Part shown: positions 2,130 to 50,806 of the stretch, in pieces | Layout: every line of letters starts with the position of its first letter | Numbering within the stretch: position 1 is the first letter of the stretch | Assembly: GCA_052246995.1 (NCBI GenBank) | Contig: JBQPWD010000001.1 | Span: 32,001-96,000 of the forward strand | Reading direction: 5' to 3' | Length of the DNA: 64,000 bases | From: Candidatus Bathyarchaeota archaeon | GTDB lineage: Archaea; Thermoproteota; Bathyarchaeia; Hecatellales; Hecatellaceae | Notes under the pieces: model-generated | The model's database searches: none | Seen by the model: only the letters and a program-made list of their open reading frames with translations | Told to the model about the DNA's origin: nothing | Translations under genes and position numbers: made by a program

Positions 2130-2708
2130 TTAATTTACTTCCCCAGCATTGTTGTTGGCTATGATTATTGCTTTAAATTCTGTTTGTCTCCAAACTTCTA
2201 AAAGTTTTTCAGGTTTACATTTAAGATATGAACCTACAGCTGGGTCATGAATATACAAGTAATTCTCATCGTAACCTACAACAACAACCGTATGTAAATA
2301 CTCGTTGATTTGTATCCTTATGATAACAGGTTTTCCATTATCAATTTCACTTTTAAGTTGCTTCATGTTTAAGGATGCGTAGTAACACTTTCCAAGGTAG
2401 TTTGAAAGTAGAGGAAGCATGTTTTCAAATCTATCGTAACCCAAATAATTGATTTCATCTTGAGTTAAATTATATCCATAATATGCTAGGACCATGCTTG
2501 CAGATGCTTCTGAACAAAACCATGGTTTCTGGTAGAAGAATGGTACGTCTAATATTTTGATTTTAGTTAAGTTTTCCTCTTCAAGCTTGCCAGAATAAAT
2601 TTGGAGGTTTGTTTGTGGAGCTTTACTGATAAAGGTTAAACATAAAATAATTAGTGTAAGTGTAATAGTTAAGACTAAAATTTTGATGCATGTTTTTCCA
2701 TTTATCAT
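2130..2708 (-). CDS. Membrane-anchored or secreted C39-like cysteine peptidase
   Basis: N-terminal hydrophobic helix; VPFFYQ..WFCSEASASMVLAYYG, HTVVVVGYD, IHDP (Q-C-H-D). Confidence 0.85.
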   Translation of the reverse strand: MINGKTCIKILVLTITLTLIILCLTFISKAPQTNLQIYSGKLEEENLTKIKILDVPFFYQKPWFCSEASASMVLAYYGYNLTQDEINYLGYDRFENMLPLLSNYLGKCYYASLNMKQLKSEIDNGKPVIIRIQINEYLHTVVVVGYDENYLYIHDPAVGSYLKCKPEKLLEVWRQTEFKAIIIANNNAGEVN

Positions 2709-2753: not shown

Positions 2754-3752
2754 CTAACTTGAAACAAACCTTTTTAAAAGAAGGTTTGCTGCTGAGTATG
2801 GATCTACTTCCCCTGATGTTACTTTGCTTAACACGTTTTTAAATTCACCATCTATGTTTGCTTTCTTTAAAACATGTTCATATATTTTTTGGGATAAAAT
2901 TTCTAAAACTTCTAACTTATTTTTTTCCATTTTAAGTTTTTCCATCATTCCTGACTCTACAAGGAAGTTTTTATGGTTATCAATTTCTTCAACAAGTTTG
3001 TCTATTCCATCACCCCTAACAGCAATAGTTTTAACAACTGGTTTTTTCCATATTTTATGGAAACCTCTTTCCTTGAGTTTCTCATAATCATATTCAACAT
3101 ACTCTTCAATTTCCCTGACAGTCTGGTCAGCATTATCTTGGTCAGCTTTATTAACAACAAATATGTCTCCAATTTCATAAATACCGGTTTTCATAGCTTG
3201 AATTTCATCTCCAAGCTTAGGCATAAGTACAAGAACAACCGTGTAAGCATACTTTATAACATCAATTTGAGTTTGCCCAGCTCCAACTGTTTCGATAATC
3301 ACTACATCTTTTCCAGATGCATCAAGAACCTTAACAGCATAACCAGTAGCCCTAGACAATCCTCCAAGCGACCCACGACTCCCCATGCTTCTAATAAAAA
3401 CACCACTATCCGTTGAATGTTCTTTCATTCTTATTCTATCACCAAGTAAAGCTCCTCCTGTAAATGGGCTTGTTGGGTCAACCGCCAAAACACCAACACT
3501 TAATCCCTTCTTCCTATATTCCCTGATAAGCCTATCAATAAGGCAGCTTTTACCTACTCCCGGTGGCCCTGTTACCCCTATAACATGCGCTTTTCCGGTG
3601 TAGGTATGAAGCTTTGCAAGGACATTCATAGCCTCACTGTTACCTTCCTCAATTAAAGTTATAAGTCTAGCAATTGCTCTAGTTTCACCATTTAAAACCT
3701 TCTTAACAAATTCGTCAACATCCTCATGTAGTATTCTGTTTAGTGTGGACAT
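2754..3752 (-). CDS. meaB: B12 mutase-associated GTPase chaperone MeaB/ArgK
   Basis: GVTGPPGVGKS, AVDPTSPFTGGALLGDRIRM, ETVGAGQ, VVNKAD. Confidence 0.97.
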   Translation of the reverse strand: MSTLNRILHEDVDEFVKKVLNGETRAIARLITLIEEGNSEAMNVLAKLHTYTGKAHVIGVTGPPGVGKSCLIDRLIREYRKKGLSVGVLAVDPTSPFTGGALLGDRIRMKEHSTDSGVFIRSMGSRGSLGGLSRATGYAVKVLDASGKDVVIIETVGAGQTQIDVIKYAYTVVLVLMPKLGDEIQAMKTGIYEIGDIFVVNKADQDNADQTVREIEEYVEYDYEKLKERGFHKIWKKPVVKTIAVRGDGIDKLVEEIDNHKNFLVESGMMEKLKMEKNKLEVLEILSQKIYEHVLKKANIDGEFKNVLSKVTSGEVDPYSAANLLLKRFVSS

Positions 3753-3814
3753 CCAAAACCTCCTACCTAGAACTTAAGTATTGAGAGCTTAATAGGAGTG
3801 TTTAAATTTTTCCA

Positions 3815-3834
3815 TGTTCTAATATTTTTGAACA
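3815..3834. promoter_or_regulatory. Putative operator TGTTC-N10-GAACA downstream of the mutase TATA box
   Basis: TGTTCTAATATTTTTGAACA; TTTAAAT at 3801-3807; similar site at 7654-7673. Confidence 0.55.
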
Positions 3835-3863
3835 TACACTTTTAACTGTATGGGTGTTAAGTT

Positions 3864-5528
<1,665 letters not shown>

Positions 5529-5540
5529 GAGGTTTTCCTT

Positions 5541-5960
5541 TTGTCTGACAGTAAGAAAATTAGGGTTTTGATTGCTAAGCCTGGTCTTGATGGGCATGAC
5601 CGTGGAGCTAAGGTTGTTGCTAGAGGTTTGGCTGATGCTGGAATGGAGGTTATTTACGCTGGCTTATGGAATTCTCCTGAGGAGATAGTAGATATAGCCA
5701 TTCAGGAGGATGTTGATGTAGTTGGGCTTAGCATTCTTTCAGGTGCACATGACGTTATTGTGCCAAAGGTTAGAAAGCTTCTTGACGAAAAAGGTGGAAA
5801 GGATATTATTCTCCTTGTAGGCGGTACAATACCTCTTGAAGACGTTGAGTATTTAAAAAGAGAATGCAGGGTAACTGAAGTTTTCCTTCCGGGCTCAAGT
5901 ATACAGTCAATAGTTAAATGTGTAGTGGAAAACGTTAAAAAGACTGGAAAAGACTGTTAA
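5541..5960 (+). CDS. Acyl-CoA mutase small (cobalamin-binding) subunit
   Basis: [12 protein letters not shown] (DxHxxG), [12 protein letters not shown] motifs. Confidence 0.96.
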
Positions 5961-6037
5961 ATTTTTCTTAAAACCATTTTTTTTAAATCATTTTTAAAAC
6001 AAAAAGTATAATTGTAGATTAAAAGCTAGGTAAAGTT

Positions 6038-7219
6038 ATGACTCGTAGGGTTGCCCTTGTTGGTTATGGATGCTTAAAAATCGGTAAGTATGGTGCTGAG
6101 CTATCTGAAAATGAGATGGCTGTTAAAGCTATAAAGCTTGCTTTGCAGGATGCTGGAATTTCTAAGAATGATGTTGAAGGATTTGTTACAACTCCAAACT
6201 ATCTTTTAACAATGGGTCTTCAACTATCAATAATTTCAGAATACTTAAGAATTTCGCCTAGAGTTGCGGCTGAAATTGCTTGTGGTGGTGTTGCTGGGGG
6301 TTTAGCACTTAAACATGCTATAAATGAAATTATGCTTGGCTATGCAGACATAGTGGTTTGTTATGGTTCTGTTAAAGAGTCTATACGTTTTAAAAACGTT
6401 GCATTAATTGAACCTGGTATGGGTATTGAAGTTTACGAGCCTACAACTCAACCGTATGCTGTTGCAGGTGTTATGTGGGCTTATGCATGTTCAGGTAGAA
6501 GGTATATGTATGAGTATGGGGCAACAGAGGAGCATTTTGCAATGGCTTGCGTAAGAGATAGGAAAGGTGCTATGCATAATCCTTGGGCGTCATTTACCAC
6601 ACCAATAACAGTTGAAGATGTTTTAAAATCACCTGTTTTATGTTCACCGTTAAAACTTTTAGACTGTTCCGCTGCAAGAGACGGTGCAGTTGCAATAGTT
6701 TTAGCTTCAGAGGAAAAGGCTAAAAAAATAACCGATATCCCCATTTACGTTACCGGTGTTGGGGAGTATCATGATAATTCAAGCATAATTCCAACAGATG
6801 GATGCGATAAACCTATAACCTCATTTATTGCCGCTAAAGAGGCTGCTCAACAAGCATTAAAGATGGCAAAAATTGATGTTAACGATGTTGATGTTGCTGA
6901 ACTTTACGCGCCTTTCAGTCCTCAAGAACTTATACTTCCAGAAGATATTGGGTGGTTTAAGAAGGGTGAAATGGTTAAGGCTATTATGGACGGCTCTACT
7001 GAGGTTGGTGGGAAAATTCCGATAAATACTGATGGGGGTCTCCTATCTAGGGGGCATCCGGCTATGGTTACTCCTCTATACGAAACCGTAAGCATTATAA
7101 GGCAGCTTAGAGGTGAAGCAGGGAAGGTTCAGGTTGCTGGTGCTGAGATAGGTTTAATGCATTGTGAGGGTGGAATGCTTAACAACTGTATGGTTTTCAT
7201 TTTTAAAAGAGGTGATTAA
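6038..7219 (+). CDS. Thiolase-superfamily protein (SCP2/Ltp-like clade)
   Basis: CGGVAGG, PLKLLDCS..DGA, INTDGGLLSRGHP, QLRGEAG..QV; adjacent to DUF35. Confidence 0.9.
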   Translation: MTRRVALVGYGCLKIGKYGAELSENEMAVKAIKLALQDAGISKNDVEGFVTTPNYLLTMGLQLSIISEYLRISPRVAAEIACGGVAGGLALKHAINEIMLGYADIVVCYGSVKESIRFKNVALIEPGMGIEVYEPTTQPYAVAGVMWAYACSGRRYMYEYGATEEHFAMACVRDRKGAMHNPWASFTTPITVEDVLKSPVLCSPLKLLDCSAARDGAVAIVLASEEKAKKITDIPIYVTGVGEYHDNSSIIPTDGCDKPITSFIAAKEAAQQALKMAKIDVNDVDVAELYAPFSPQELILPEDIGWFKKGEMVKAIMDGSTEVGGKIPINTDGGLLSRGHPAMVTPLYETVSIIRQLRGEAGKVQVAGAEIGLMHCEGGMLNNCMVFIFKRGD

Positions 7220-7625
7220 GCTGTCTTCTCCATCAGAAATAGTTCATCTCCAACCAAAAATTACAAGTTTGACTTTAAAGTTTTGGGAAGGATTAAGAAA
7301 CAGGAAACTTTTAGCACCTAAGTGTAAAGAGTGTGGTGAAACATTTTTCCCACCTAGAGGTTTTTGTCCAAAATGTTTTTCTGAGGATATTGGATGGATT
7401 GAGCTTAGCGGTAAGGGTAAGCTTTATAGTTGGACTGAAGTTCACTACTTAACCACTAAACCATACATTCTTGGTGTTATAGAGTTAGCTGAGCGTGTTG
7501 GTAGAATGATTTCTAGAGTTGAAGCCAAAGCTGAAGAGCTAGTAATAGATATGCCTGTAAAAATTGACTTTATAAAAGTTTCAGATAAGCTTACTATTTT
7601 TATCTGGAAACCTGATAAAAACTAA
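7212..7625 (+). CDS. DUF35 Zn-ribbon/OB-fold protein (thiolase partner)
   Basis: FWEGL...KCKECG..FFPPRGFCPKC...GKGKLYSWT; start probably GTG 7212 or CTG 7221 after GAGGTGA. Confidence 0.92.
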   Translation: MIKLSSPSEIVHLQPKITSLTLKFWEGLRNRKLLAPKCKECGETFFPPRGFCPKCFSEDIGWIELSGKGKLYSWTEVHYLTTKPYILGVIELAERVGRMISRVEAKAEELVIDMPVKIDFIKVSDKLTIFIWKPDKN

Positions 7626-7653
7626 GAAAACCTAAAAATTTATATCTTTTTTC

Positions 7654-7673
7654 TATTCCTATATTTAGGAATA
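7654..7673. promoter_or_regulatory. Putative operator TATTCCTA-N4-TAGGAATA downstream of the CoA-ligase TATA box
   Basis: Perfect 8-bp inverted repeat starting 15 nt after TTTATA (7639). Confidence 0.6.
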
Positions 7674-7722
7674 TAGTAGACTTTATGTAAAATTTAGTCT
7701 GCAAATTTTAGGTGAGATTTGT

Positions 7723-9210
7723 TTGTCTACTCGTCTTGAACGTTTAAAAATGATTAAAGGTTGGTGGCGTCCGGATAAAATCTCCCCCGAACTTGTTAAA
7801 AAATTTGTAGACATGTATCCAATTTACAGAAATGATGTCAACGACCCCAACTTTAAACCTCAAAAAGAAATTGTTGAAATTCAAAACAGAAATTTAAGAA
7901 GGCAGGTTGAGCTTTGTGCAAAATACAGTCCTTATTATAGGGAGTTGTTTAAAAAGCATAACATTGACCCATCATCCATTAAAACTGTAGATGACTTAGT
8001 GAAGATTCCTTTAACATTTAAAAGAGATTACATGGCCAACCCTGAAGCTTTTAGGCTTGCTATAGATAAGCCAACACTTTATGAACTTCCATGGGATGTA
8101 ACATTTACTACGGGAACAACCACGGGTGTACCTACTCCATTTTATAATACTGTTCATGACCTATATTCGATATCCCTGTTTCTTATGAGGAGTGCAAAAA
8201 TTTGCTGGGGGTCTCCTGACGGAGTAATCTTTAATGCGTTTCCTTATGGTCCTGTACCTCATATTGGCTATCTTAGGGCGATAACTTCAGCTTTAGCTAT
8301 AGGTGCTTCTGTTGTTTCAGGTCATACTGGTATACCTCATCCAGAGTTTCCTGTTCATAGAAGGATGGATGAGGCTATTAGAATGATTGAAAACCATAAG
8401 TGTAATACCATAATGGGTATTGCAAGCTATGTTAGAAGGATGATTATGAGAGCTGAAGAGCTTGGAGCTGACTTTTCATCGATAATGGTTATCCATGTTC
8501 TTGGTGAAGGTTGTCCTAAAGGTATGCGTGATGATTTAAGAAGAAGGTTGGAGAAGCTTGGTGCTGAAGATGTTTTTGTGCATAATGGTTATGGGTTTAC
8601 AGAGTGTCAAGGCTCTTTTAGTGAGTGTACTGAGCTTGTAGGCAACCATAACCCCTCCCCAGACCTATACTTTATTGAAGTTGTTGATGAAGAAACTGGT
8701 GAACGTAAAGCTGACGGTGAAACAGGGCTAATAGCTTTAACTCATCTAAACCGTAGAGGTACAGTGCTACTTAGATATGTTATAGGCGATATTGGTAGGA
8801 TAACCCATGAACCATGTTCATACTGTGGTAGAACTGGAGATAGGCTTTTAATTGTTGCTGGAAGTACTTATGCAACAAGAACAAAGGAGCTTGTAAAGTT
8901 AAAAGGTACATTAATCAATCCTGCAATTTTATCTCATGAAATTGAAAATATTCGTGGGGTTGCGGAATATCAGATAGTTTTCACGAAGGAGGATCCAAAC
9001 GACCCTTACTCCATGGATAAACTTGTGGTAAGGATAGCTCCTTCAGGTGAAGTTCCACTTGAAGAGTTAAAAGGGAAAATTATTGATGCTACGTTTAGAG
9101 CTGTAGAAATGAGACCCGAGGTTGAGTTTACAACTCCTGAGAAAATTTTTGATGCAACAGTTTCCTTAAAGGCTTCAAGAGTTGTTGACAAACGTCCACA
9201 GGTGGCTTAA
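7723..9210 (+). CDS. Phenylacetate-CoA ligase (PaaK)-family acyl/aryl-CoA ligase
   Basis: SPYYR, TTGTTTG P-loop, GYGFTE, LLRYVIGD, KLKGTLINP, RVVDKR. Confidence 0.88.
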   Translation: MSTRLERLKMIKGWWRPDKISPELVKKFVDMYPIYRNDVNDPNFKPQKEIVEIQNRNLRRQVELCAKYSPYYRELFKKHNIDPSSIKTVDDLVKIPLTFKRDYMANPEAFRLAIDKPTLYELPWDVTFTTGTTTGVPTPFYNTVHDLYSISLFLMRSAKICWGSPDGVIFNAFPYGPVPHIGYLRAITSALAIGASVVSGHTGIPHPEFPVHRRMDEAIRMIENHKCNTIMGIASYVRRMIMRAEELGADFSSIMVIHVLGEGCPKGMRDDLRRRLEKLGAEDVFVHNGYGFTECQGSFSECTELVGNHNPSPDLYFIEVVDEETGERKADGETGLIALTHLNRRGTVLLRYVIGDIGRITHEPCSYCGRTGDRLLIVAGSTYATRTKELVKLKGTLINPAILSHEIENIRGVAEYQIVFTKEDPNDPYSMDKLVVRIAPSGEVPLEELKGKIIDATFRAVEMRPEVEFTTPEKIFDATVSLKASRVVDKRPQVA

Positions 9211-9257
9211 GCACTGTCATCCTACAACTGGAGCTAGCAACTTATTTATATCCATTT

Positions 9258-9274
9258 AATGTATACTATACATT
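9258..9274. promoter_or_regulatory. Perfect palindrome AATGTATA-C-TATACATT after the ACAD TATA box
   Basis: 8-1-8 inverted repeat; TTTATA at 9245-9250. Confidence 0.5.
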
Positions 9275-9308
9275 TTAAACATCTTTAAAAATCAGGTTGG
9301 GTGTTTAG

Positions 9309-10841
9309 ATGGAACCTTTTCCTTGGTGGAGGGAGGAACACAAAAAGCTTGCTGAGGATGTTGAAAAGTTTGTTGAAGAGAATGGTTATATTGCTGCTGA
9401 AACTACATGGTTGAGAAAAGTTCCATGGGTCCTTATAAAAAAAATCGGTGAGAAAAGATGGTTTGGTGTTTCTGTTCCTAAGGAGTATGGTGGTTTAGGT
9501 TTAGGCATTACTGGTGCTTGTATTGTTGCTGAGGGGCTTGCAAAACTTGGAAACATCGCCCTTATTTACGATACAACAATGTTTGGTGGCGTTCATCAAA
9601 TATTGGAGTTTGGAAGTGAGGAGCAGAAGCGTAAGTGGCTTCCACGTATTGCTAGAGGTGAAATTCTAGGTGCAATAACTATAACTGAACCTTATGTTGG
9701 TTCTGATGTTGTTTCTATTGAAACTAAGGCTAAGCTTGTTGGAAATGAGTATATTGTTAATGGTAAGAAAAGGTTTATCAGTAACGCTGGAATAGCCGGA
9801 ATATATTTAGCTTATGTTAGAACAAGCGATAAGCCTGAAGATGTTGCCGCTTACAAACATCTTACAGCTTTAGTTATTGAGAAAGGTACACCTGGTTTTA
9901 CGATTGAAAAGATTAATGAGCTTTGCGGTTGGGATGGTGTGTACAACGGCTATTTAAGTTTTGATGATGCACGTGTACCTGTTGAAAACAGGCTTGGTAA
10001 CGAGGGTGATGGTTGGCAGGTTGCTGTTACAGGGTTAAACTTTGAAAGAACTTTGGGAGCTGCGTCTGCTCTTGCAGGTATAGCTGAGTGTTTAAGGTAT
10101 GCTGTTTTCCATTCTAGGAGGCGTGTACAGTTTGGTCAACCTACAAGCGAGTATCAAGCAAACCAGCTTAAAATTGCTGATATGATGATGAAGCTTAAAG
10201 CTGCAAGATTACTGGTATACTATACTGCATATCTTATTGATTCCGGACAATCTCCAATCATCGAGTCTACAGCTTCAAAGGTTCTTGTTTCGGAGATTTA
10301 TAAGGAGGTTTCTGACAATGCTATTCAAGTTATGGGTGGAGATGGTTGGACTAAGTTTTACCCTGTTGAATCTGTTTTTAGAAGCTCAAAAATCTTGGAG
10401 ATTGGTGCTGGAACAAATGAAATTCTTAGGTTGCTTGTTTACAGGCTTGGTTTAAGACTTATGGCTAACTACCTCAAACCCCCACGTAGAGTAATTCATG
10501 AGAAGCTTGGAATCCCTGTTCCTCCACAACTAGGTAAACCTAAAATACCCCGAGAACAGGTTAATGAGGATAGACTTTTAGAACTTTTAGCTGAAAACTA
10601 CAAAGTTAATCCTGGACTTTACATGGCAAGAGAGGATGTTAAGGAAGAGATGGATATAACTGATGAGCAGCTTGACATGATAACCATCTCCTTGGAGAAG
10701 AAAGGTTTAGTTAAAGTTTACAGGGATAGGCATGGTAACATTAGACTTATAAGGCCAACTTATGACGCCTTAAGAAAGACTAAACCAAGTGAATACTATA
10801 GGTGGTATCCTGAGTGGGTTGACATGAGCGAGCTCTTCTGA
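9309..10841 (+). CDS. Acyl-CoA dehydrogenase with C-terminal winged-helix-like extension
   Basis: ITEPYVGSD, NGKKRFISNA, RVQFG, QVMGGDG, EIGAGTNEI; extra ~125 aa including LEKKGLV. Confidence 0.92.
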   Translation: MEPFPWWREEHKKLAEDVEKFVEENGYIAAETTWLRKVPWVLIKKIGEKRWFGVSVPKEYGGLGLGITGACIVAEGLAKLGNIALIYDTTMFGGVHQILEFGSEEQKRKWLPRIARGEILGAITITEPYVGSDVVSIETKAKLVGNEYIVNGKKRFISNAGIAGIYLAYVRTSDKPEDVAAYKHLTALVIEKGTPGFTIEKINELCGWDGVYNGYLSFDDARVPVENRLGNEGDGWQVAVTGLNFERTLGAASALAGIAECLRYAVFHSRRRVQFGQPTSEYQANQLKIADMMMKLKAARLLVYYTAYLIDSGQSPIIESTASKVLVSEIYKEVSDNAIQVMGGDGWTKFYPVESVFRSSKILEIGAGTNEILRLLVYRLGLRLMANYLKPPRRVIHEKLGIPVPPQLGKPKIPREQVNEDRLLELLAENYKVNPGLYMAREDVKEEMDITDEQLDMITISLEKKGLVKVYRDRHGNIRLIRPTYDALRKTKPSEYYRWYPEWVDMSELF

Positions 10842-10843
10842 GG

Positions 10844-11812
10844 CTAAGCTTCACGTAGGTGAATGTCTCCAGCAACAACTCTAACAACTAAGCCATCCCT
10901 AACTTTTACAAGCAGAAATCCATCCTCATCAACATCTAAAGCTTCACCTACGAAGCTTTCTTCGTAAGATTCAACTTTAACCTTTTTACCTAACGTTTGT
11001 GATAACTTTCTCCATTCCTCAATTATTCTGGAGAATTCTCCATGCTTAAACTCTAAGTATAGTTTTTCAAATTCTTCCAAAAGTTTTACTGTAAGCTTAA
11101 CCATTGAGACTTCTTTTCCAAGTAGTTCTAGGATTGATGTTGCTGCAGTTGATAGTTCTCTTCTACCCGTAAACCTTACATTTATGTTTATTCCTATACC
11201 CACAATAACGTAGTTTACTTTATCAACATCCCCTGAAGCTTCAACAAGAATTCCACAAATTTTTTTACCTTCAATTAAAACGTCGTTAGGCCACTTTAAT
11301 TTTGCATTCAACTTGTAAAGTTTTTTTAAAGTTTTAGCAACGGCAACCCCTGCAAGCAAACTAAGCCTTTGAACTTTTGATGTTGGAATGTTTGGCTTTA
11401 ATATTATGGATAGCCATAATCCTCCTTTAGGTGAAAACCACTCACGTCCAACTCTTCCTCTTCCTCTAGTTTGTTTTTCAGCAATAACAACAGTTCCCTC
11501 CTCTAAACCAGCATCAACAAGAGTTTTAGCAACATTTTGGGTTGATTCAACCTCCTCAAAATAAAAAATCTTCTTACCAATTATTTTTGTTCTTATTTCT
11601 GATTTTATTTCTGCTGGTAATGGTTTGTTTGGTGTGCTTACAATCGTATAACCTATTTTTGGTGTACCTTGAATGTTGTATCCTTCTATTCTTAGATTTT
11701 TGATTTGCTTCCATACGGCTGCTCTTGAAAGTTTAAGTTTTTTACCTAATTCTTCTCCGGATATTTGTTTTTTTCTTTTTAGCATTTTTACTATTTTTTC
11801 TTTGATATCCAA
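10844..11812 (-). CDS. birA: Bifunctional biotin-protein ligase/repressor BirA
   Basis: N-terminal HTH (ISGEELGKKLKLSRAAVWKQI), QTRGRGRVGREW, KWPND, KICGILVE. Confidence 0.97.
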   Translation of the reverse strand: MDIKEKIVKMLKRKKQISGEELGKKLKLSRAAVWKQIKNLRIEGYNIQGTPKIGYTIVSTPNKPLPAEIKSEIRTKIIGKKIFYFEEVESTQNVAKTLVDAGLEEGTVVIAEKQTRGRGRVGREWFSPKGGLWLSIILKPNIPTSKVQRLSLLAGVAVAKTLKKLYKLNAKLKWPNDVLIEGKKICGILVEASGDVDKVNYVIVGIGININVRFTGRRELSTAATSILELLGKEVSMVKLTVKLLEEFEKLYLEFKHGEFSRIIEEWRKLSQTLGKKVKVESYEESFVGEALDVDEDGFLLVKVRDGLVVRVVAGDIHLREA

Positions 11813-11844
11813 TGTAAACCCTAAATAAATTTATAGTTGACGTT
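11811..11844. promoter_or_regulatory. BirA operator (BIO box)
   Basis: AATGTAAAC-N16-GTTGACGTT between divergent birA and bioY; fits the TGTAAAC-N14-16-GTTTACA consensus. Confidence 0.8.
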
Positions 11845-11870
11845 TGTTTAAAAGCATTAAGGGGCTTTTT

Positions 11871-12425
11871 ATGGTTTTTAAGGTGAATTCCTTAGATTTA
11901 GCTTTAGCTTCAACTTTTGCTGCTTTAACAGGTATGGGTGCATATATAATGATTCCCTTACCCTTTACACCTGTACCTGTTACGGCTCAAACATTTTTCA
12001 CCCTTTTATCAGGTGTTGTTCTTGGTGGGTTTAGAGGTTTTTTAAGTCAGATAATCTATGTTGGCTTGGGTTGTGTTGGTTTACCTGTTTTTGCTGGTGG
12101 TAAAGCTGGTTTGCCTGTTTTACTTGGACCGACTGGTGGATATCTTTTAGGTTTTATTGTTTCAGCCTACATTGTTGGTAGGCTTAACGAGCTTAGAGAA
12201 AATGTAAGTTTTGCATGGGTTTTTGCTTCAACAATCGTTGGAAACTTGGTAATCTACTTTTTTGGTCTTCTTCAACTTATGTTTTGGCTGGGGTTAACCT
12301 TTATTGAGGCGGTAGTTGTTGGTTTTTTACCATTTATTTTTGGAGATGTGGTTAAAGTTTTTCTTGCATCAGTTGTTGGTTTAAGAATTGTTAAAATTTT
12401 TCCTAACTTAGGAAAGAGAGGTTAG
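11871..12425 (+). CDS. bioY: Biotin transporter BioY
   Basis: PFTPVPVTAQT, GLPVFAGG, GPTGGYLLGF, PFIFGD; start probably ATG 11871. Confidence 0.96.
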   Translation: MVFKVNSLDLALASTFAALTGMGAYIMIPLPFTPVPVTAQTFFTLLSGVVLGGFRGFLSQIIYVGLGCVGLPVFAGGKAGLPVLLGPTGGYLLGFIVSAYIVGRLNELRENVSFAWVFASTIVGNLVIYFFGLLQLMFWLGLTFIEAVVVGFLPFIFGDVVKVFLASVVGLRIVKIFPNLGKRG

Positions 12426-16753: not shown

Positions 16754-19129
16754 GTGGTTAATTTCATGGAGATAAGAAAGGGCCCTGTTAAGCTTCAAGT
16801 TAAAGACCTAAGAACAGGCACAATTCAGGCAAAAGACCTTGAAGTGATGATAGGTAAGCTTGCAATGGAAGAAGAATGGGAACCTCAGGGACCAACACCA
16901 TTTCCAGGAATATACACACTTAGAAACTGGGATCATAAGCTTTTAACCCGTTACAAGCCATTCTATGCGCCTTTTTGTGACATGTGTTGTTTATGTACAT
17001 ATGGTAAATGTGATTTAACCGCTGGAAAACGTGGTGCATGTGGAATAGACATTAAAACCCAGCAAGCAAGGATAGTTTTACTTGCATGTTGTATAGGTGC
17101 TTCATGCCATACAGGACATGCCCGCCACATGGTGGAACATTTACTTAGAAAGTATGGTGAAGATTACCCAATAAATCTTGGAGGAGAAATCGAGTGTGAA
17201 ATGCCTCATGCAAGGCTTGTATGTGGAATAAAACCTAAAACAATAGGCGATTTAAGTTATATTTTAAACTACTGTGAGGAGCAGATTGTTCACTGTCTTT
17301 CTGCAACCCATACAGGTCAGGAGGGAAGCTACATAGATTTTGAATCAAAATCTCTTCATGTAGGTATGATTGACCATGTGGCCATGGAAGTTGCTGATGT
17401 AGCTCAAATAGTTACATTTAACTTTCCTAAAGGTGACCCTAACGCACCGCTTACAGAAGTTGGAGCTGGATGTGTAGATATAAATAAACCTCTAGTTTTA
17501 TGTATAGGTCATAATGTTGCATCAGGAGTAGAAATCATAGATTATATGCGTAAAAACAATCTGGGGCTTCCAGGACAAACATTGGAGGTTGCAGGTTTAT
17601 GTTGCACCGCTCATGATATAACAAGGTATTGTGAGGAAGCAAAAATTATTGGGCCTATGTCCCATGAGCTTAGATTTATCCGTAGCGGGATTGCTGATTG
17701 TATAGTTGTCGACGAACAATGCATTAGAACTGATGTTGTTGAGGAGGCTTGGCTTACAAAAACACCAGTTATTGCTTCAAACGATAAAGCTTTCTACGGC
17801 CTCCCAGACTTAACAGAAGAACCTGTAGAAGTTATAGTTAACAAGCTGGTTAACAGGGAGATTAAAGGTGCTTTAATATACGATCCGGAAAAAGTTGGTG
17901 CGGTTGCAACTTTAACAGCTTTAAGGATGCATCCAGTACGTAAAAAGTTTAAGGCTATTCCAGATTTAAACCAAATTAAGGATGTAGCCTCAAAATGCAC
18001 ACTCTGTGGTAGATGTCGTAGAAACTGTCCATGGGGTCTTTCAACAGATGAGGCTATAAATGCCGCTGCGCATGGTAATATAGAGCCTCTTGTCAAGCTT
18101 TACGATTACTGTGTTGGTTGTGGTAGATGTGAGGAAGCGTGTCCTCAACGCATCCCCGTTCACAGCCTGATTGTTGCTGCCGCTGACCGCAAATTTAAAA
18201 CTGAAAAATTCAAGATTAGGGTTGGACGTGGACCAATTTTAGATACCGAGATCAGGGAAGTCGGCTCCCCAATTGTCCTTGGAGAGATTCCTGGTGTTGT
18301 TGCCTATGTTGGCTGTGCAAACTGGCCTTCCCCAATGCAGGATGTTGGAAGAATGGCTTATGAGTTTGCGCGTAGAGGGTACATCGTTACAGCTAGTGGA
18401 TGTTCAGCCATGGCAATGGCATTCTATAAAGATGAAGAAGGACGTTCACCCTACGAAGCCTTCCCAGGAGAATTTAATCGTGGTGGTATTGTAAATGTTG
18501 GCTCATGCGTGGCCAACTCCCACATTACTGGCGCAGCAATAAAGATTGCAAACATTTTTGCTAGAAGAAGGCTTAGAGGAAATTATGAGGAAATAGCTGA
18601 TTACGTACTTCATAGGGTTGGTGCTTGTGGTGTTGCATGGGGTGCTATGAGCCAGAAGGCAGCATCCATAGCTACAGGATGTAATAGGCTTGGCATTCCA
18701 GTAATTATTGGTCCTCAAGGCTCAAAGTATAGGAGACTTTACCTTGGTAGAATTGAGGATAAAGAAAGTTTTAGCACGTTGGATGCACGTACAGGCCAGA
18801 AAGTATTTATTGGTCCAGCACCCGAACACCTAGTTTACATTGCTGAAACAATTGAAGAATGTATGGTTTGGACAGCAAAACTTTGTTTACGTCCAAACGA
18901 TACAACCAAGGGTAGAATGATTAAGCTAACCCATTATGTTGAACTTTACAAACGCTTTTACGGTAGACTTCCAAAAGACTTGCCCATGCTTGTTAGAACA
19001 GAAGCGGATATTCCAATAACCTTTAAGGATGAAGTTTTAGAATTTTTGAAGGCTGAAGGCTGGGAACCTCATCCTCAACCATCAATAGACCCAACACTGC
19101 TGGAGAGGCTTGTAAGGGTAAAGGTTTAG
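16754..19129 (+). CDS. cdhA: CODH/acetyl-CoA synthase complex alpha subunit
   Basis: CDMCCLCTYGKC, GLCCTAHD, two ferredoxin motifs, GSCVANSH, WGAMSQKA. Confidence 0.98.
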   Translation: MVNFMEIRKGPVKLQVKDLRTGTIQAKDLEVMIGKLAMEEEWEPQGPTPFPGIYTLRNWDHKLLTRYKPFYAPFCDMCCLCTYGKCDLTAGKRGACGIDIKTQQARIVLLACCIGASCHTGHARHMVEHLLRKYGEDYPINLGGEIECEMPHARLVCGIKPKTIGDLSYILNYCEEQIVHCLSATHTGQEGSYIDFESKSLHVGMIDHVAMEVADVAQIVTFNFPKGDPNAPLTEVGAGCVDINKPLVLCIGHNVASGVEIIDYMRKNNLGLPGQTLEVAGLCCTAHDITRYCEEAKIIGPMSHELRFIRSGIADCIVVDEQCIRTDVVEEAWLTKTPVIASNDKAFYGLPDLTEEPVEVIVNKLVNREIKGALIYDPEKVGAVATLTALRMHPVRKKFKAIPDLNQIKDVASKCTLCGRCRRNCPWGLSTDEAINAAAHGNIEPLVKLYDYCVGCGRCEEACPQRIPVHSLIVAAADRKFKTEKFKIRVGRGPILDTEIREVGSPIVLGEIPGVVAYVGCANWPSPMQDVGRMAYEFARRGYIVTASGCSAMAMAFYKDEEGRSPYEAFPGEFNRGGIVNVGSCVANSHITGAAIKIANIFARRRLRGNYEEIADYVLHRVGACGVAWGAMSQKAASIATGCNRLGIPVIIGPQGSKYRRLYLGRIEDKESFSTLDARTGQKVFIGPAPEHLVYIAETIEECMVWTAKLCLRPNDTTKGRMIKLTHYVELYKRFYGRLPKDLPMLVRTEADIPITFKDEVLEFLKAEGWEPHPQPSIDPTLLERLVRVKV

Positions 19130-19131
19130 AG

Positions 19132-19692
19132 GTGAAATTTATGTCTTCAATTCTACCCTCGAGAACATCTCCATATGAAACTGCCAACATTCCAGGTCCC
19201 CAGATGGCTTTATCCCCAGATAAAGCTCCAACAGTCTTTGCCGCCATGGTTAAAAGAGCTAAAAATCCACTTTTAATAGTTGGAAAATATGTTTTAGAGG
19301 TTGAACTAGAAGGTAAAAAGCTGATAGATTACGCTATAGAAATATCTAAGAAAAAGAATATACCTATTGTTGCAACAACCAACACCCTTAAAGGCTTTAT
19401 TGAAAAAAACTACCCGGTTGTTGAAATGAGTTTAGTTGACATAGTTAACAGACTTCAAGACCCAAAATTTACAGTAACCCCTGCGAAGACACCACCACAC
19501 GACCTAGTTCTATTCCTAGGAATAACCTACCAGTTTGCATCTCAAGGGCTTTCAACATTAAAACATTTTGCACCACATCTAAGAACAGTAACTCTATGTA
19601 AATGGTACCATCCAAACGCGCATTGGAGCTTCCCAAACATGGATGATAAGGAATGGAAAAAAATGCTTGAGGAATTTATTCAAGCATTGTAA
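19132..19692 (+). CDS. cdhB: CODH/ACS complex epsilon subunit
   Basis: KRAKNPLLIVG, DLVLFLG, LSTLKHFAP, YHPNAHWSFPN. Confidence 0.96.
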   Translation: MKFMSSILPSRTSPYETANIPGPQMALSPDKAPTVFAAMVKRAKNPLLIVGKYVLEVELEGKKLIDYAIEISKKKNIPIVATTNTLKGFIEKNYPVVEMSLVDIVNRLQDPKFTVTPAKTPPHDLVLFLGITYQFASQGLSTLKHFAPHLRTVTLCKWYHPNAHWSFPNMDDKEWKKMLEEFIQAL

Positions 19693-19770
19693 CAAAAAAT
19701 ATTAAAACATCAAAACCAATAAAAAGGATAAGTATTTTCTAGACAAAAATGCGGGAAGGAATGAGTTACC

Positions 19771-21183
19771 ATGTCTGAGGAGAAATTTCCTGTTGAAGTT
19801 AGTCCTGTATACGAGGGTGAAAGGATAAGAAAGGAGGACATGTTTGTTGAGCTTGGAGGTCCGAATGTTCAACATAAGTGTGAACTTGTTCAAGCAAGGT
19901 CAGCAGAGGAAGTTGAGGATGGAAAAATTAGCGTTGTAGGACCAGACCTAAACCAGCTTAAAGAGGGTGAATCCTACCCCTATGGAGTTTTAGTTGAGGT
20001 TGCGGGGGCTCAAGTTGAAAAGGACCTTGAATCGGTTATTGAACGTCGTATTCATGACTTCTCAAACTACATTGAAGGATACATGCACCTAAACCAACGA
20101 TATGATATATGGTGTAGACTTAGCAAAAGAGCTTACGCTAAAGGTTTAAACTCTTTTAAGTGGATTGGTAAAGCATTAATAAGGTTATTTAAAGCTGAAC
20201 TTCCATTCATAGAAAAGATGCAAATAACCTTTTACACCGACCCTGAAAAAGTAAAAGAGCTTTATGATTTTGCTATCAAAGTTTACGAGGCTAGGGATGC
20301 TAGAACAAGAGGTATAAGAGATGAGGATGTAGATGTATTTTACAGCTGTGTTTTATGTCAATCTTTCGCTCCACAACATGTATGTATAATCGCCCCAAAC
20401 AGGGTTTCTCTTTGTGGTGCGATAAACTGGTTTGATGCTAGAGCTGCTGCAAGAGTAGACCCAAAGGGTCCAGTAATCCCTGTACAAAAAGGAGAATGTG
20501 TAGACTCTATAAGAGGAGAATATACTGGTGTAAACGAAATTGTTGAAAAAAGGTCTCTTGGGGCAAACAAACGTTTCTACCTTTACAGCGCATTTGGCTA
20601 CCCGCATACATCATGCGGATGCTTTGAAACAATAGCATTTTACATTCCCGAAGTTGAGGGTTTTGGATGTGTTGATAGAGGATTTAAGGGTCCAACAGTT
20701 AACGGTTTACCCTTCTCAACCATGGCAACCCAGGTTGGTGGAGGTATTCAAAGTCCAGGCTTCCTAGGTTTAGGTATAGAGTACTATAGGTCTCCAAAGT
20801 TTTTCCAGGCTGATGGTGGGTGGGCTAGAATAGCATGGATGGCTTCAACATTAAAAGGAAGAGTTAAGGATGCAATACCCTCAGAACTTGTAGATAAAAT
20901 TCCAACAGAAAAAGAAGTATCCTCAATAGAGGACCTTAAAAAGTTTCTTGTTGAGAAAGGCCACCCATTAGCCGAAATCATTAAAGCTAAGGAGGCTAAA
21001 GAAGTAAAAGTTGAAGTTGCTGAAGTAGCTGAAGCTGTAGCACCTGAAATTGCACCTGGAATTTCTGTAACAGGCTTACCTACACTAGGTATACCTACCG
21101 CCGGTGTTGGCGGAGGATTCCGTGTTACATTTAAGGGTGCAAAAATTAAGATAGACAAACTGGTTATAAAAAAGAAAGAGTAG
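19771..21183 (+). CDS. cdhC: Acetyl-CoA synthase beta subunit
   Basis: YEGERIRK, FYSCVLCQSFAPQHVC, PHTSCGCFE. Confidence 0.98.
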   Translation: MSEEKFPVEVSPVYEGERIRKEDMFVELGGPNVQHKCELVQARSAEEVEDGKISVVGPDLNQLKEGESYPYGVLVEVAGAQVEKDLESVIERRIHDFSNYIEGYMHLNQRYDIWCRLSKRAYAKGLNSFKWIGKALIRLFKAELPFIEKMQITFYTDPEKVKELYDFAIKVYEARDARTRGIRDEDVDVFYSCVLCQSFAPQHVCIIAPNRVSLCGAINWFDARAAARVDPKGPVIPVQKGECVDSIRGEYTGVNEIVEKRSLGANKRFYLYSAFGYPHTSCGCFETIAFYIPEVEGFGCVDRGFKGPTVNGLPFSTMATQVGGGIQSPGFLGLGIEYYRSPKFFQADGGWARIAWMASTLKGRVKDAIPSELVDKIPTEKEVSSIEDLKKFLVEKGHPLAEIIKAKEAKEVKVEVAEVAEAVAPEIAPGISVTGLPTLGIPTAGVGGGFRVTFKGAKIKIDKLVIKKKE

Positions 21184-21188
21184 TTAAG

Positions 21189-22448
21189 GTGATGCTTATG
21201 TCCTCCATGGAAAAAAAGAAGAAGGAAGAAGAAGGCATCTCAAGTGTTAGGGGGATAGGTGTTCAGGAGCTTCTAGCTTTACTAGACAAGGCTAAAACTC
21301 TTGAACTTGAAAATGTTGAAATTGTTGCTGAGGAGCTTACATTTGAACTTTTACCATTAGTTCTTCAAGCAGTTACACCCCCACCCCCTCCAACACCCCC
21401 TCCACCTGTTGAAAAACCTCTTAAACTTGAAGAAGTCATGTTTGAACCGCCAATTTTCACCTACACCAGTCAAATTGCTGAAGTTCAAATCGGTGCAACT
21501 GCAAACGAGGGTGGTACAAGGAAGAAGGTTATAAAGATTGGCGGAGAAAAATCTCCTGCGTTTTACAGGTTTGAAAATCCAACACCAAATCGGCCTGTTG
21601 TTGCTTTAGACGTTTTTGACGAACTTCCCCCACTACCAAAAACTATCAAGGACTACTATAAGGATGTTTTTAAAGACCATATTGCATGGATAAATAAGTG
21701 TATTGAAGAGTATAAAGCTGACCTTGTAACAGTGCATCTTGTAAGCACCGATCCATCTGGTACAAATACTCCTGCACCAAAAGCAGCAGAATTTATAGAT
21801 AAATTGCTGGATACTGTAGATTACCCATTTATTGTTGGAGGTTCAGGTGACCCTGAAAAGGATTTAAAAGTTTTTAATGAAGTTGGTAAGGTTGCTAAAG
21901 GTGAAAGAATAGTTTTAGCATCTGTAACTCTTGACATGGATCTACAGCAATCTGCAAAAATAGTTTCCGAGAATGGTTTAAATGTGATTGCTTTAGCTTT
22001 TCTAGACATAAACCAAGTTAAAGAGTTAAACAGTAAACTTATGGATTATGGTGTAAGTAAAAACAACCTTATCACCGACCCCTCAACGGGTGGACTTGGC
22101 TACGGGTTAGAATACACCTTCAGCATGATGGAAAGAATGAGACTTGCAGGGCTTATGGGCGACCCATCTATGCAATCTCCAATATCATGCGCAGCCACAA
22201 ATGGCTGGGCTGCCAGGGAAGCTTGGCTTAAAGTTGATGAATGGGGTCCAAGAGAGTATAGAGGACCAATATGGGAAGCAGTAACAGGGCTTTTAGGTTT
22301 GTTTGCAGGTGCAGACCTTTTCATGATGATGCATCCTCTTGCAGCTCAAATAGTTAAAAATACTGCTGAAATTCTGTCAAAACATAAAATTAAAGAGGAT
22401 ATTAAAGAGATTCCATATGAAAACTGGGTTAAAATGAAGATTTGGTAA
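21189..22448 (+). CDS. cdhD: Corrinoid Fe-S protein small (delta) subunit
   Basis: GGSGDPEKD, DPSTGGLGYGLEY, WAAREAW, GADLFMMMHP. Confidence 0.97.
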   Translation: MMLMSSMEKKKKEEEGISSVRGIGVQELLALLDKAKTLELENVEIVAEELTFELLPLVLQAVTPPPPPTPPPPVEKPLKLEEVMFEPPIFTYTSQIAEVQIGATANEGGTRKKVIKIGGEKSPAFYRFENPTPNRPVVALDVFDELPPLPKTIKDYYKDVFKDHIAWINKCIEEYKADLVTVHLVSTDPSGTNTPAPKAAEFIDKLLDTVDYPFIVGGSGDPEKDLKVFNEVGKVAKGERIVLASVTLDMDLQQSAKIVSENGLNVIALAFLDINQVKELNSKLMDYGVSKNNLITDPSTGGLGYGLEYTFSMMERMRLAGLMGDPSMQSPISCAATNGWAAREAWLKVDEWGPREYRGPIWEAVTGLLGLFAGADLFMMMHPLAAQIVKNTAEILSKHKIKEDIKEIPYENWVKMKIW

Positions 22449-22469
22449 GCTTAAGGGGGTGTATACGTT

Positions 22470-23888
22470 ATGCCCAAAATTCTCCGTCCACTAGATGTTT
22501 ACAAGTATCTTCCAGGAACAAACTGTGGTGAATGCGGTGAAGTTAACTGTATGGCTTTTGCAGCGAAACTTATTGAACGCCAAGTTTCTATTGAGAAATG
22601 TACTCCACTATTTAAGGAGCCAAAGTTTAAAGATAAACTTGAAGGTTTACTTCAAGTTATAAGGCCACCAGTAAAAGAGGTTGTTATTGGTGTTGGAGAT
22701 AGAGCTGTAACCGTTGGTGGTAAAGTTTGTGTTTACAGGCATGAGTTAACATGGTATTATCCAACAGCAATAGCTGTGGATGTTCATGATGAAGCAGCTG
22801 AAGACGAGCTTGTTAAAAGGGTTAAACAAGTTGAAGGATACGTTATTGAAAGAATAGGTCAAAAGCTTATGCTTAACATGATTGCTGTTAGATGTGTTTC
22901 AGAGAATGGTGAAAAGTTTGCAAGGGCTGTTAACATTATTTGTAAAAATACCAACCTGCCCTTAATACTATGTAGCTATAATCCTGATATAATGGAGGAA
23001 GCTTTAATAGTTGCTGGAGAAAAAAGACCTTTAATATATGCTGCAAACGAGAAAAACTGGAAGGATTTTGCCAAGCTTGCCTCAAAGTATAAATGTCCAC
23101 TTACAGTTTCAGCGCCTGGAAATCCTTCAATGTTAAAATCTATCTGCAGGTCTCTGAGAAACTATGGTTTAGACGACCTTATACTTGACCCTGGAACCTT
23201 TACTAAGGGTGATAGTTTTAATGAAACAATAAATAATTTTACAATGCTTAGAAGGGCTGCAATAGAAAAGGATGCTAAAGATGTAGGATACCCCTTACTA
23301 GGTATACCTGCAACAGTCTGGCTCAACCCTGAGGATGATGAAGTTTCAACAAAAATAAAAGAATCTTACTTGGCATGCGCGTTAATGGTTAGATATGCCG
23401 ATATCATTATTTTACACAGCATAGACCCATGGGTTTTACTTCCAATACTTGTATGTAGACAAAACCTTTACACCGACCCAAGAATTCCTCTCTCAGTTAA
23501 GCCTGGGTTGTACCCCGTTAAGGAGCCAACGGAGAATTCACCTGTATTTGTTACATGCAACTCAGCCTTAACATACTTCCTTGTTAGAAACGATGTTGAA
23601 AATGCTGGTGGCGGCTGGCTAGTTTCTGTTGACACTGGTGGAATTAGTCTACAATCTTCTGTTGCTGGTAGAAGGTTTACAGCTGAGATGGTGGCTAACA
23701 CAATGAAAGAAACCAATATAATGGATAAGGTTAAACATAAAACTGTAGTTATTGGGGGTTATGCTGCCAGAATAAGCGGTGAACTTGAAGAGCTTCTCCA
23801 GGGTTGGCGTGTTTACGTAGGTCCAAGAGATTCATCAGCCATACCCGAGTTTATCAAGAATGTTTGGTTAAAAGAGGTTAAAGGGTAA
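22470..23888 (+). CDS. cdhE: Corrinoid Fe-S protein large (gamma) subunit
   Basis: LPGTNCGECGEVNCMAFA, YRHE, YTDPR, VGPRDSS. Confidence 0.98.
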   Translation: MPKILRPLDVYKYLPGTNCGECGEVNCMAFAAKLIERQVSIEKCTPLFKEPKFKDKLEGLLQVIRPPVKEVVIGVGDRAVTVGGKVCVYRHELTWYYPTAIAVDVHDEAAEDELVKRVKQVEGYVIERIGQKLMLNMIAVRCVSENGEKFARAVNIICKNTNLPLILCSYNPDIMEEALIVAGEKRPLIYAANEKNWKDFAKLASKYKCPLTVSAPGNPSMLKSICRSLRNYGLDDLILDPGTFTKGDSFNETINNFTMLRRAAIEKDAKDVGYPLLGIPATVWLNPEDDEVSTKIKESYLACALMVRYADIIILHSIDPWVLLPILVCRQNLYTDPRIPLSVKPGLYPVKEPTENSPVFVTCNSALTYFLVRNDVENAGGGWLVSVDTGGISLQSSVAGRRFTAEMVANTMKETNIMDKVKHKTVVIGGYAARISGELEELLQGWRVYVGPRDSSAIPEFIKNVWLKEVKG

Positions 23889-32899: not shown

Positions 32900-32910
32900 G
32901 GTGTTAAATT

Positions 32911-50803: not shown

Positions 50804-50806
50804 AAA

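Follow-up and report, generated by a model that had tools for sequence, protein, structure and literature searches.

An isobutyryl-CoA mutase-like enzyme and its gene neighborhood in a Candidatus Bathyarchaeota genome

We analyzed a 64,000-nucleotide stretch of DNA (hereafter the window) from a Candidatus Bathyarchaeota archaeon (GenBank assembly GCA_052246995.1, contig JBQPWD010000001.1, positions 32,001 to 96,000), in which a gene cluster surrounds the two subunits of a B12-dependent acyl-coenzyme A (acyl-CoA) mutase. The source genome is archaeal, comprises 1.53 Mb in 17 contigs and is 100% complete by marker genes; the window is C1:32001-96000 of that genome, and the same stretch is present in hot-spring and sediment sequencing runs. 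Judged by its active-site residues, the mutase is not a methylmalonyl-CoA mutase (MCM), and a database label of that kind would be wrong. We put the chances at somewhat better than even that it is a two-subunit enzyme resembling isobutyryl-CoA mutase (ICM), whose isomerization of isobutyryl-CoA and n-butyryl-CoA feeds beta-oxidation. Correcting the label to an ICM-type mutase is well founded from the sequence; beyond it, we infer which substrate the enzyme uses, which way the flow runs and what each neighboring gene contributes. The type of enzyme is already known and widespread, and no new kind of system is proposed.

The translation of the large subunit contains the motifs WTIRMFSGYG, GLSTAFDFPTL and KEFIAQKSYR and keeps SGYH, HTQTAG and NSYDEA. 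A preliminary description of the cluster had drawn attention to RMFSG and EFIAQK as the places where MCM has Tyr and Arg, and both motifs are indeed there; as they are read straight from the sequence, chance plays no part. With the specificity columns set by HMMER alignments of the mutase to solved structures, its Phe aligns to the Tyr of RQYAG in the MCMs of P. shermanii (1req, 5req) and human, and its Gln to the Arg of FMVRNTY in the same proteins. These are Tyr89 and the carboxylate-binding Arg207 of MCM (P. shermanii numbering), which are here replaced by Phe and Gln. A third residue, the Ala of STAFDF, aligns to the Asp of STDFDM in HcmA of the 2-hydroxyisobutyryl-CoA mutase (HCM), whose first motif, RQIAG, has Ile; we take Ile90 and Asp117 to be the HcmA specificity residues. 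Read across the three columns, the window mutase is Phe/Ala/Gln, and the MCM structures and the genome's own MCM are Tyr/Ala/Arg. Its Phe and Ala face the Ile and Asp of HcmA (4r3u, Methylibium Mpe and Xanthobacter Xaut_5021, all Ile/Asp/Gln), the Asp of the HcmA position being absent, and Xaut_5043 differs at every column (Leu/Leu/Asn). Two plasmid genes to which PGAP gives the name fused isobutyryl-CoA mutase/GTPase IcmF are likewise Phe/Ala/Gln. We take Phe and Gln at these positions to mark an ICM, an assignment that draws on general knowledge of the family and on the alignments made here.

Profile scores agree with membership of the acyl-CoA mutase superfamily (Table 1), and the B12 domain, of the DxHxxG base-off/His-on type, is supplied by a separate small subunit. 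Two narrower NCBIfam equivalogs were not reached: the MCM model NF006944 gave 596.9 bits against a cut-off of 876, a weak test as the model describes a fused alpha chain, and the IcmF model NF045497 gave 351 against 1500. Nor is the single-chain architecture of IcmF present: the mutase, its B12 subunit and MeaB each have a gene of their own, and meaB runs in the other direction.

The Pfam search of the genome returned two mutase genes. The second, on contig C2, has RQYAG and YVARGTY and lies in an operon with a CobA/CobO adenosyltransferase, a B12 subunit and a glyoxalase-family epimerase-like protein. This is a canonical MCM operon, and the window mutase, 53-54% identical to the C2 enzyme over the whole protein, must therefore be a paralogue whose pocket differs, and not the organism's MCM. 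The expectation in the preliminary description that an MCM label would probably be wrong is thus borne out by the Phe/Gln site, by the separate Tyr/Arg operon and by the equivalog score.

To place the enzyme among its relatives, homologues were searched for among 5.8 billion proteins, and the query was aligned with its 120 best hits. In this set 120 of 121 sequences are Phe/Ala/Gln and one is Tyr/Ala/Arg. Apart from one cluster at 63%, only six lie above 62% identity (94, 83, 79, 77, 69 and 62%), and the nearest named relative (85%) comes from a Candidatus Hecatellales archaeon. Hosts among the 120 best hits are Bathyarchaeia, Asgard groups, Thermoplasmatota, Desulfurococcales, Chloroflexota, Desulfobacterota and Bacillota, and those homologues that have a name at source are called either methylmalonyl-CoA mutase (family protein) or acyl-CoA mutase large subunit family protein. 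A FastTree phylogeny of 156 dereplicated sequences, rerun with the two IcmF added, placed the window mutase in a six-leaf subclade on a long branch (support 1.0), nested in a clade of 38 leaves, all of them Phe/Ala/Gln (support 0.985). IcmF, HcmA and Xaut_5043 fall elsewhere in the tree; the patristic distance that separates the window mutase from IcmF is 2.29, from HcmA 1.45 and from the MCM of the same genome 1.14. The nodes that unite the Phe/Gln clade with MCMs have support of 0.33-0.85 depending on the taxon set, and since this deep support is weak we claim no sister group. The comparison with MCM, ICM, HCM and pivalyl-CoA mutases outlined in the preliminary description therefore separates the enzyme from IcmF, HcmA and Xaut_5043 and leaves the deep nodes weak. 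Its reading of Phe/Gln as the ICM/IcmF signature agrees with the residues, shared with both PGAP-named IcmF. Because the residues match ICM while the tree, the NF045497 score and the unfused architecture differ, the enzyme would work like an ICM and is not an IcmF.

Other acyl-CoA mutases met in the searches are of interest in their own right. Two proteins considered as IcmF, P0154 (913 aa) and P0267 (887 aa), were set aside as they run in the order mutase-B12-MeaB and score 413-415 against 1500 with NF045497; they are Phe/Ala/Gln fusions, and an ICM-type mutase may thus have been joined to its chaperone a second time, independently of IcmF. A Streptomyces parvulus plasmid mutase was rejected as an IcmA reference when its site proved to be Tyr/Arg. 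Many representatives of acyl-CoA mutases clustered at 50% identity (P0126-P0275) have neither Tyr/Arg nor Phe/Gln, with Val/Gly, Leu/Gly, Ile/Cys and Gln/Ser as examples, and they make up a large, deep-branching part of the tree that is shared with Xaut_5043.

The gene content was established from a listing of open reading frames and from Pfam and NCBIfam profile scans of the window (Table 1), and the genes and coordinates given in the preliminary description hold. Six plus-strand genes, from the mutase to the acyl-CoA dehydrogenase (ACAD), are at most 98 bp apart and could therefore form one operon. MeaB exceeds its equivalog cut-off, has the P-loop GPPGVGKS and the motif NKAD, and is single-copy, as a tblastn search of the genome returns the window gene only. 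An Rfam search matched no RNA family in the cluster, including the 111-bp spacer between meaB and the mutase gene. A gene for a C39-like cysteine peptidase (2130-2708, minus strand) adjoins meaB, and its position is kept in a same-genus genome and in the Hecatellales record carrying the 85% mutase orthologue.

Table 1. Coordinates (window positions) and supporting profile matches for the mutase cluster and the adjoining biotin genes
Feature	Position	Strand	Profile matches and remarks
MeaB G-protein chaperone	2754-3752	-	PF03308 303 bits; TIGR00750 364.4 bits (cut-off 240.75)
AT-rich intergenic region between divergent meaB and mutase genes, 111 bp	3753-3863	.	presumed promoter region
Acyl-CoA mutase large (catalytic) subunit	3864-5528	+	PF01642 683 bits (cut-off 22.1); TIGR00641 729 bits (cut-off 303.8)
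B12-binding small subunit, 139 aa	5541-5960	+	PF02310 80.5 bits; TIGR00640 162.7 bits; DGHDRG
SCP-x/archaeal-type thiolase	6038-7219	+	PF22691 140 bits
DUF35 protein (zf-ChsH2 and OB_ChsH2_C; Zn-ribbon and OB)	7164-7625	+	PF12172 52.9 bits; PF01796 48.9 bits
PaaK-family AMP-forming acyl-CoA ligase	7723-9210	+	PF00501 50 bits
Acyl-CoA dehydrogenase (ACAD), 510 aa	9309-10841	+	three ACAD Pfam domains, residues 9-379
BirA (HTH and biotin-protein ligase)	10844-11812	-	PF03099, PF08279, PF02237; TIGR00121 231 bits
BioY biotin transporter component	11844-12425	+	PF02632 146 bits

Much of this arrangement recurs in other genomes. A same-genus genome (G001) keeps the block from the C39-like peptidase to BioY at 79-95% identity, including the overlap of the thiolase and DUF35 genes. 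Two other genera keep the mutase at 84-85%, one (G007, 96% complete) with the B12 subunit and one (G011, 61% complete) with MeaB, and the contigs end there. Neighborhoods were also counted at 160 loci by BLAST with the window proteins (E 1e-10) within 6 kb of the mutase, 53 of these loci having at least 6 kb on both sides. The B12 subunit is near the mutase at 125 of the 160 loci (49 of the 53), an ACAD at 88 (36), MeaB at 71 (33), a thiolase at 24 (11) and DUF35 at 15 (8), though counts made in this manner miss classical thiolases. Genes for crotonase, 3-hydroxyacyl-CoA dehydrogenase and electron transfer flavoprotein (ETF) are also frequent neighbors in the clade. Within the subclade, one locus (L014, mutase 79% identical) carries a PaaK-like ligase, MeaB, the mutase, the B12 subunit and an adenosyltransferase; another (L020, 68%) has an ACAD, a crotonase, a 3-hydroxyacyl-CoA dehydrogenase, DUF35, a thiolase and the ETF alpha subunit; and in a third (L044, 64%) thiolase, crotonase, ACAD and mutase follow in a row. 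At the level of enzyme class, this type of mutase is strongly associated with beta-oxidation genes.

Two further arrangements were noted along the way. Contigs of Desulfobacterota/Syntrophaceae type (L041, L084, L085, L097, L108, L116, L122-L124, L131) repeatedly show the mutase followed by B12 subunit, thiolase, thiolase, DUF35, ACAD and MeaB, and most add a second mutase after these. In a neighboring genus (G009:C32, G006:C69) no more than about 2.5 kb separates a PaaK-like ligase (29% identity) from a thiolase (38-39%) on the same contig. The listed mutase matches of these two genomes are on other contigs, and the pairing of ligase and thiolase may therefore exist on its own.

The other enzymes of the cluster could be assigned with varying precision. 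Where the archaeal acetyl-CoA acetyltransferase 7yvy has AAC and GHP, the aligned thiolase of the cluster has EIAC and GHP, and the Cys of HCEGG is present; we take the Cys of EIAC to be the nucleophile and presume their usual roles for the His of GHP and for the second Cys, in HCEGG. This SCP-x-type thiolase, with its Cys and His, is followed by a Zn-ribbon/OB protein, DUF35, called here as the longest open reading frame with a 56-nt overlap with the 3' end of the thiolase gene, so that its true start may be later. A mevalonate-type trio of HMG-CoA synthase, thiolase and DUF35 lies on contig C5 and no HMG-CoA synthase gene adjoins the window pair, which is therefore an extra paralogue. The ligase can be named at the family level only: its best NCBIfam scores are all below cut-off, namely FlxY (163 against 520) and the PaaK equivalogs NF041878 (130 against 700) and TIGR02155 (109 against 646). 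Against solved structures it scores 100.6 bits with PaaK 4r1l and 45 with the 2-hydroxyisobutyryl-CoA synthetase 6hdw, and its Atlas neighbors carry the name phenylacetate-CoA ligase family.

The ACAD had been described as an isovaleryl-CoA dehydrogenase (IVD) type. This holds only for the placement of its catalytic base: a Glu lies in LNFERTL, and GAG takes the place of the YEG of 5lnx and 5ol2; in human IVD the catalytic Glu is, we presume, on helix G, with Gly or Ala at the usual Glu376 position. IVD does not stand out by overall similarity: the IVDs in PDB score 201-224 bits, and generic and butyryl-CoA dehydrogenases 227-239. The protein belongs to a family of 508-519 aa; in all 121 members the base is relocated in this way, and a C-terminal tail of about 125 aa (residues ~385-510) is conserved. 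For this tail, Pfam gave a weak Rrf2/winged-helix hint (E 0.019) and the Atlas search no usable hit. Among 121 genomes of the class, 4 were found to have the long ACAD, and in the two outside the genus no homologue of the cluster adjoins it. Hosts of the family are Bathyarchaeia and Freyarchaeota.

Whether the genes are expressed together was approached through metatranscriptomic RNA-Seq contigs of one run (X5), matched at 99% identity or better. They cover parts of the mutase (4016-5016, 5111-5391), B12 subunit (5564-5894), thiolase (6031-6522, 6805-7080) and DUF35 (7165-7434) genes, and a single contig of 2,567 nt runs from the ligase to the ACAD across the spacer between them (8113-10676). 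All six same-strand genes are thus represented; meaB and birA have zero or near-zero depth, uncovered parts not being evidence. A second run (X8) gave short pieces only, some at 90-95% identity. The co-expression foreseen in the preliminary description is therefore matched by contigs on six genes, one of them crossing an intergenic spacer, which cannot by themselves prove transcription. The contig across the ligase-ACAD spacer has a TA insertion at position 9266 and 13 base differences, indicating a strain variant in the sample of a different study.

Several characterized or predicted systems resemble the cluster in part. IcmA/IcmB of Streptomyces cinnamonensis (EC 5.4.99.13) also consists of separate large and B12-binding small subunits, and its IcmA presumably has Phe and Gln in place of the MCM Tyr and Arg; unlike it, the window mutase has its closest kin in a clade made up of uncultured anaerobes and archaea. 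Fused IcmF (PDB 4xc6; Ideonella dechloratans and Priestia megaterium plasmid copies) is, like the window mutase, Phe/Ala/Gln; it needs a MeaB-type G-protein, and the PGAP-named IcmF genes also adjoin genes for ACAD and 3-hydroxybutyryl-CoA dehydrogenase. IcmF differs in joining B12 domain, MeaB and mutase in that order in one chain, whereas the window enzyme is unfused, and the window mutase scores 288 bits against the IcmF in PDB and 563 against HcmA, its best match among solved structures. A passage of a 2010 review describes ICM as then known from bacteria only (PMC2847961). In Syntrophothermus lipocalidus TGB-C1, Slip_0757-0760 is a predicted ICM cluster with MeaB for isobutyrate degradation, with isobutyryl-CoA proposed to become butyryl-CoA for beta-oxidation (PMC5017805). 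It shares with the window a split mutase and a MeaB-like protein in an anaerobe, but it is bacterial and includes an adenosyltransferase, which here sits in the MCM operon.

The HCM cluster hcmB-hcl-meaH-hcmA of Methylibium petroleiphilum PM1 and Xanthobacter autotrophicus Py2 (4r3u, 6hdw) likewise combines a PaaK-type acid-CoA ligase, MeaB and a split mutase. Beyond the Ile and Asp of HcmA, it differs in its ligase, the window ligase being 22-24% identical to those of the HCM and Xaut_5043 clusters. The Xaut_5043/5044 cluster of X. autotrophicus Py2 has the same three components, with Leu/Leu/Asn, a rebuilt second motif and another position in the tree.

The following reaction sequence is consistent with these observations. 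The mutase (3864-5960) would catalyze an adenosylcobalamin-dependent radical 1,2-shift of the thioester carbon between isobutyryl-CoA and n-butyryl-CoA, with the divergently encoded MeaB G-protein loading and protecting the cofactor. The ligase may activate a short branched acid, most likely isobutyrate, either taken up or derived from valine; by analogy, a PaaK-type ligase beside MeaB and a mutase has precedents in the HCM and Xaut_5043 clusters. The mutase would then straighten isobutyryl-CoA to butyryl-CoA, an ACAD could oxidize butyryl-CoA to crotonyl-CoA, crotonases and 3-hydroxyacyl-CoA dehydrogenases encoded elsewhere would hydrate and oxidize it, and the thiolase/DUF35 pair may split acetoacetyl-CoA into two acetyl-CoA. 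The genome holds a beta-oxidation set of 8 crotonase, 4 3-hydroxyacyl-CoA dehydrogenase, 10 ACAD and 6 thiolase genes and one ETF pair. A further step envisaged in the preliminary description, the passing of acetyl units to carbon monoxide dehydrogenase/acetyl-CoA synthase (CODH/ACS) or to an ADP-forming synthetase, is not supported: the window does hold CODH/ACS genes and a gene of the ADP-forming CoA ligase alpha type, but they are at least 6 kb off and behind unrelated genes, MoeA and DUF116.

A number of observations weigh against this assignment. The substrate is predicted from two or three residues only, and we know of no assayed member of the Phe/Gln clade. At 21 positions, among them F158, H229, W251, Y333, Y335 and L338, the subclade departs from residues whose conservation is 85-100% across 112 other Phe/Gln sequences, and mostly also in MCMs; with the long branch, these changes mean that specificity could have shifted, and the relocated ACAD base and genus-specific ligase leave further room for this. 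All 122 other ACADs next to mutases (more than 300 aligned residues) have YEG. A PaaK-like ligase is near the mutase at 1 of the 160 loci and at none of the 53 with full flanks. Searched genome-wide in G007 and G011, no orthologue was found of the ligase (best 29% identity) or the thiolase (best 34%), and the long ACAD had no match there at E 1e-100 or better. With these three orthologues confined to the same genus, the cluster as a set of orthologues is genus-specific; the claim that it forms a system, with synteny in relatives as its measure, thus holds for the widely recurring linkage of enzyme classes and not for these genes. Crotonase and 3-hydroxyacyl-CoA dehydrogenase genes lie outside the operon, and only one POR_N-type 2-oxoacid oxidoreductase was found in the genome, so that a dedicated valine route is not evident. 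As to expression, the RNA-Seq contigs stand for presence in an RNA library and not for strand, level or a single transcript, and they may derive from DNA.

Other readings account for some of the same facts. A second MCM, as the family-level database names suggest, would fit the source names of the homologues and the identity to the C2 enzyme, but the absence of the Tyr and of the carboxylate-binding Arg, the equivalog shortfall (597 against 876) and the canonical MCM that the genome already has beside an epimerase-like gene make it highly improbable. The flow might instead run in reverse, with acetyl-CoA condensed by the thiolase/DUF35 pair, reduced to butyryl-CoA and isomerized to isobutyryl-CoA, yielding isobutyrate as a fermentation product or feeding valine and branched-chain synthesis. 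The mutase reaction is reversible, archaeal thiolase/DUF35 pairs condense in the mevalonate pathway (PDB 6esq/6et9 family) and CODH/ACS offers a source of acetyl-CoA. We nevertheless consider reverse flow unlikely: the AMP-forming ligase of the operon suggests that an acid is activated rather than released, the mevalonate-type trio is a different locus, and IlvD is encoded in the genome, so that the normal valine route is probably present. A shift of the subclade to another non-carboxylated acyl-CoA (longer, 2-methyl-branched or aryl-substituted), matched to the genus-specific ligase and ACAD, would explain the 21 subclade-specific changes and the well-supported long branch, and characterized relatives of the PaaK-like ligase act on aryl acids. 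Yet neither the three specificity residues nor the YH, QT and NSxDEA motifs have changed, and other subclade members adjoin ordinary short-chain beta-oxidation genes, which leaves such a shift rather doubtful. Similarly doubtful is the broader joint proposal that the subclade, which comprises the window mutase and six relatives of 62-94% identity, acquired a substrate unlike that of any characterized acyl-CoA mutase and, in this genus, was combined with its own acid-CoA ligase and an archaeal ACAD with relocated base and winged-helix-like tail, for catabolism of a branched or unusual acid.

The preliminary description had also allowed for pivalate or isovalerate, with the ligase activating either acid, the mutase interconverting pivalyl-CoA and isovaleryl-CoA and the ACAD oxidizing the latter. 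The Glu of LNFERTL with GAG for YEG, a placement that we take to be that of IVD, speaks for this C5 chemistry, and birA and bioY adjoin the cluster. IcmF, with the same Phe/Gln site, also converts pivalyl-CoA and isovaleryl-CoA, according to a passage of one report (PMC10481361). The long ACAD, however, turns up in two other genomes, where it lies apart from mutase, ligase and thiolase genes alike. Moreover, Xaut_5043, which we take to be a native, dedicated pivalyl-CoA mutase (a literature search found no paper that names its locus tag), has Leu/Leu/Asn. From 3-methylcrotonyl-CoA onward, the canonical route depends on a biotin carboxylase. In this 100% complete genome no Biotin_carb_C match was found by a search that was positive in 13 of 14 control genomes, so that the genome lacks the canonical 3-methylcrotonyl-CoA carboxylase step, which argues against the canonical isovalerate route. 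The sole carboxyltransferase belongs to a Na+-decarboxylase-type cluster (C1:178000-184400) with a biotin carrier, OAD_beta, an oxaloacetate-decarboxylase alpha-like gene and a second biotin carrier. Taken together, these results disfavor the C5 option, to which we give little credence. The biotin carrier proteins of the Na+-decarboxylase-type cluster are most likely the targets of BirA, with BioY supplying their biotin. A link of birA and bioY to the mutase cluster is not supported, as they form a divergent pair of their own with 31 bp between start codons and are probably an independent unit. The pair resembles a self-regulated biotin uptake unit.

An ICM-like function would matter for annotation. 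Thousands of archaeal and bacterial genes of the Phe/Gln clade are labeled methylmalonyl-CoA mutase, a label that distorts metabolic reconstructions by implying propionate or succinate metabolism where isomerization of butyrate and isobutyrate is more likely. An assayed member of the clade, none being known to us, would anchor a very large set of annotations. For the organism, the locus suggests that a Bathyarchaeia-type inhabitant of hot springs may use isobutyrate, from valine or from its environment, by ordinary beta-oxidation. A literature search by term counts found no paper that joins Bathyarchaeia with isobutyryl-CoA, one unrelated proteome paper apart.

Elsewhere in the window, several other gene sets were recognized. 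A five-gene CODH/ACS set of archaeal type (Prismane/CO-dehydrogenase, CO_dh, CdhC and two CdhD-family genes) occupies 16754-23888, a cluster of FAD-binding, CCG-domain and FAD-binding genes lies at 31421-35753, and a four-gene cluster of NiFe-hydrogenase type (Fer4_22, NAD/FAD-binding, Oxidored_q6, NiFeSe_Hases) spans 48331-52078. Finally, a 203-aa protein encoded at 55212-55823 on the minus strand matches Arrestin_N (PF00339, E 2.2e-8), which is unusual for an archaeon.

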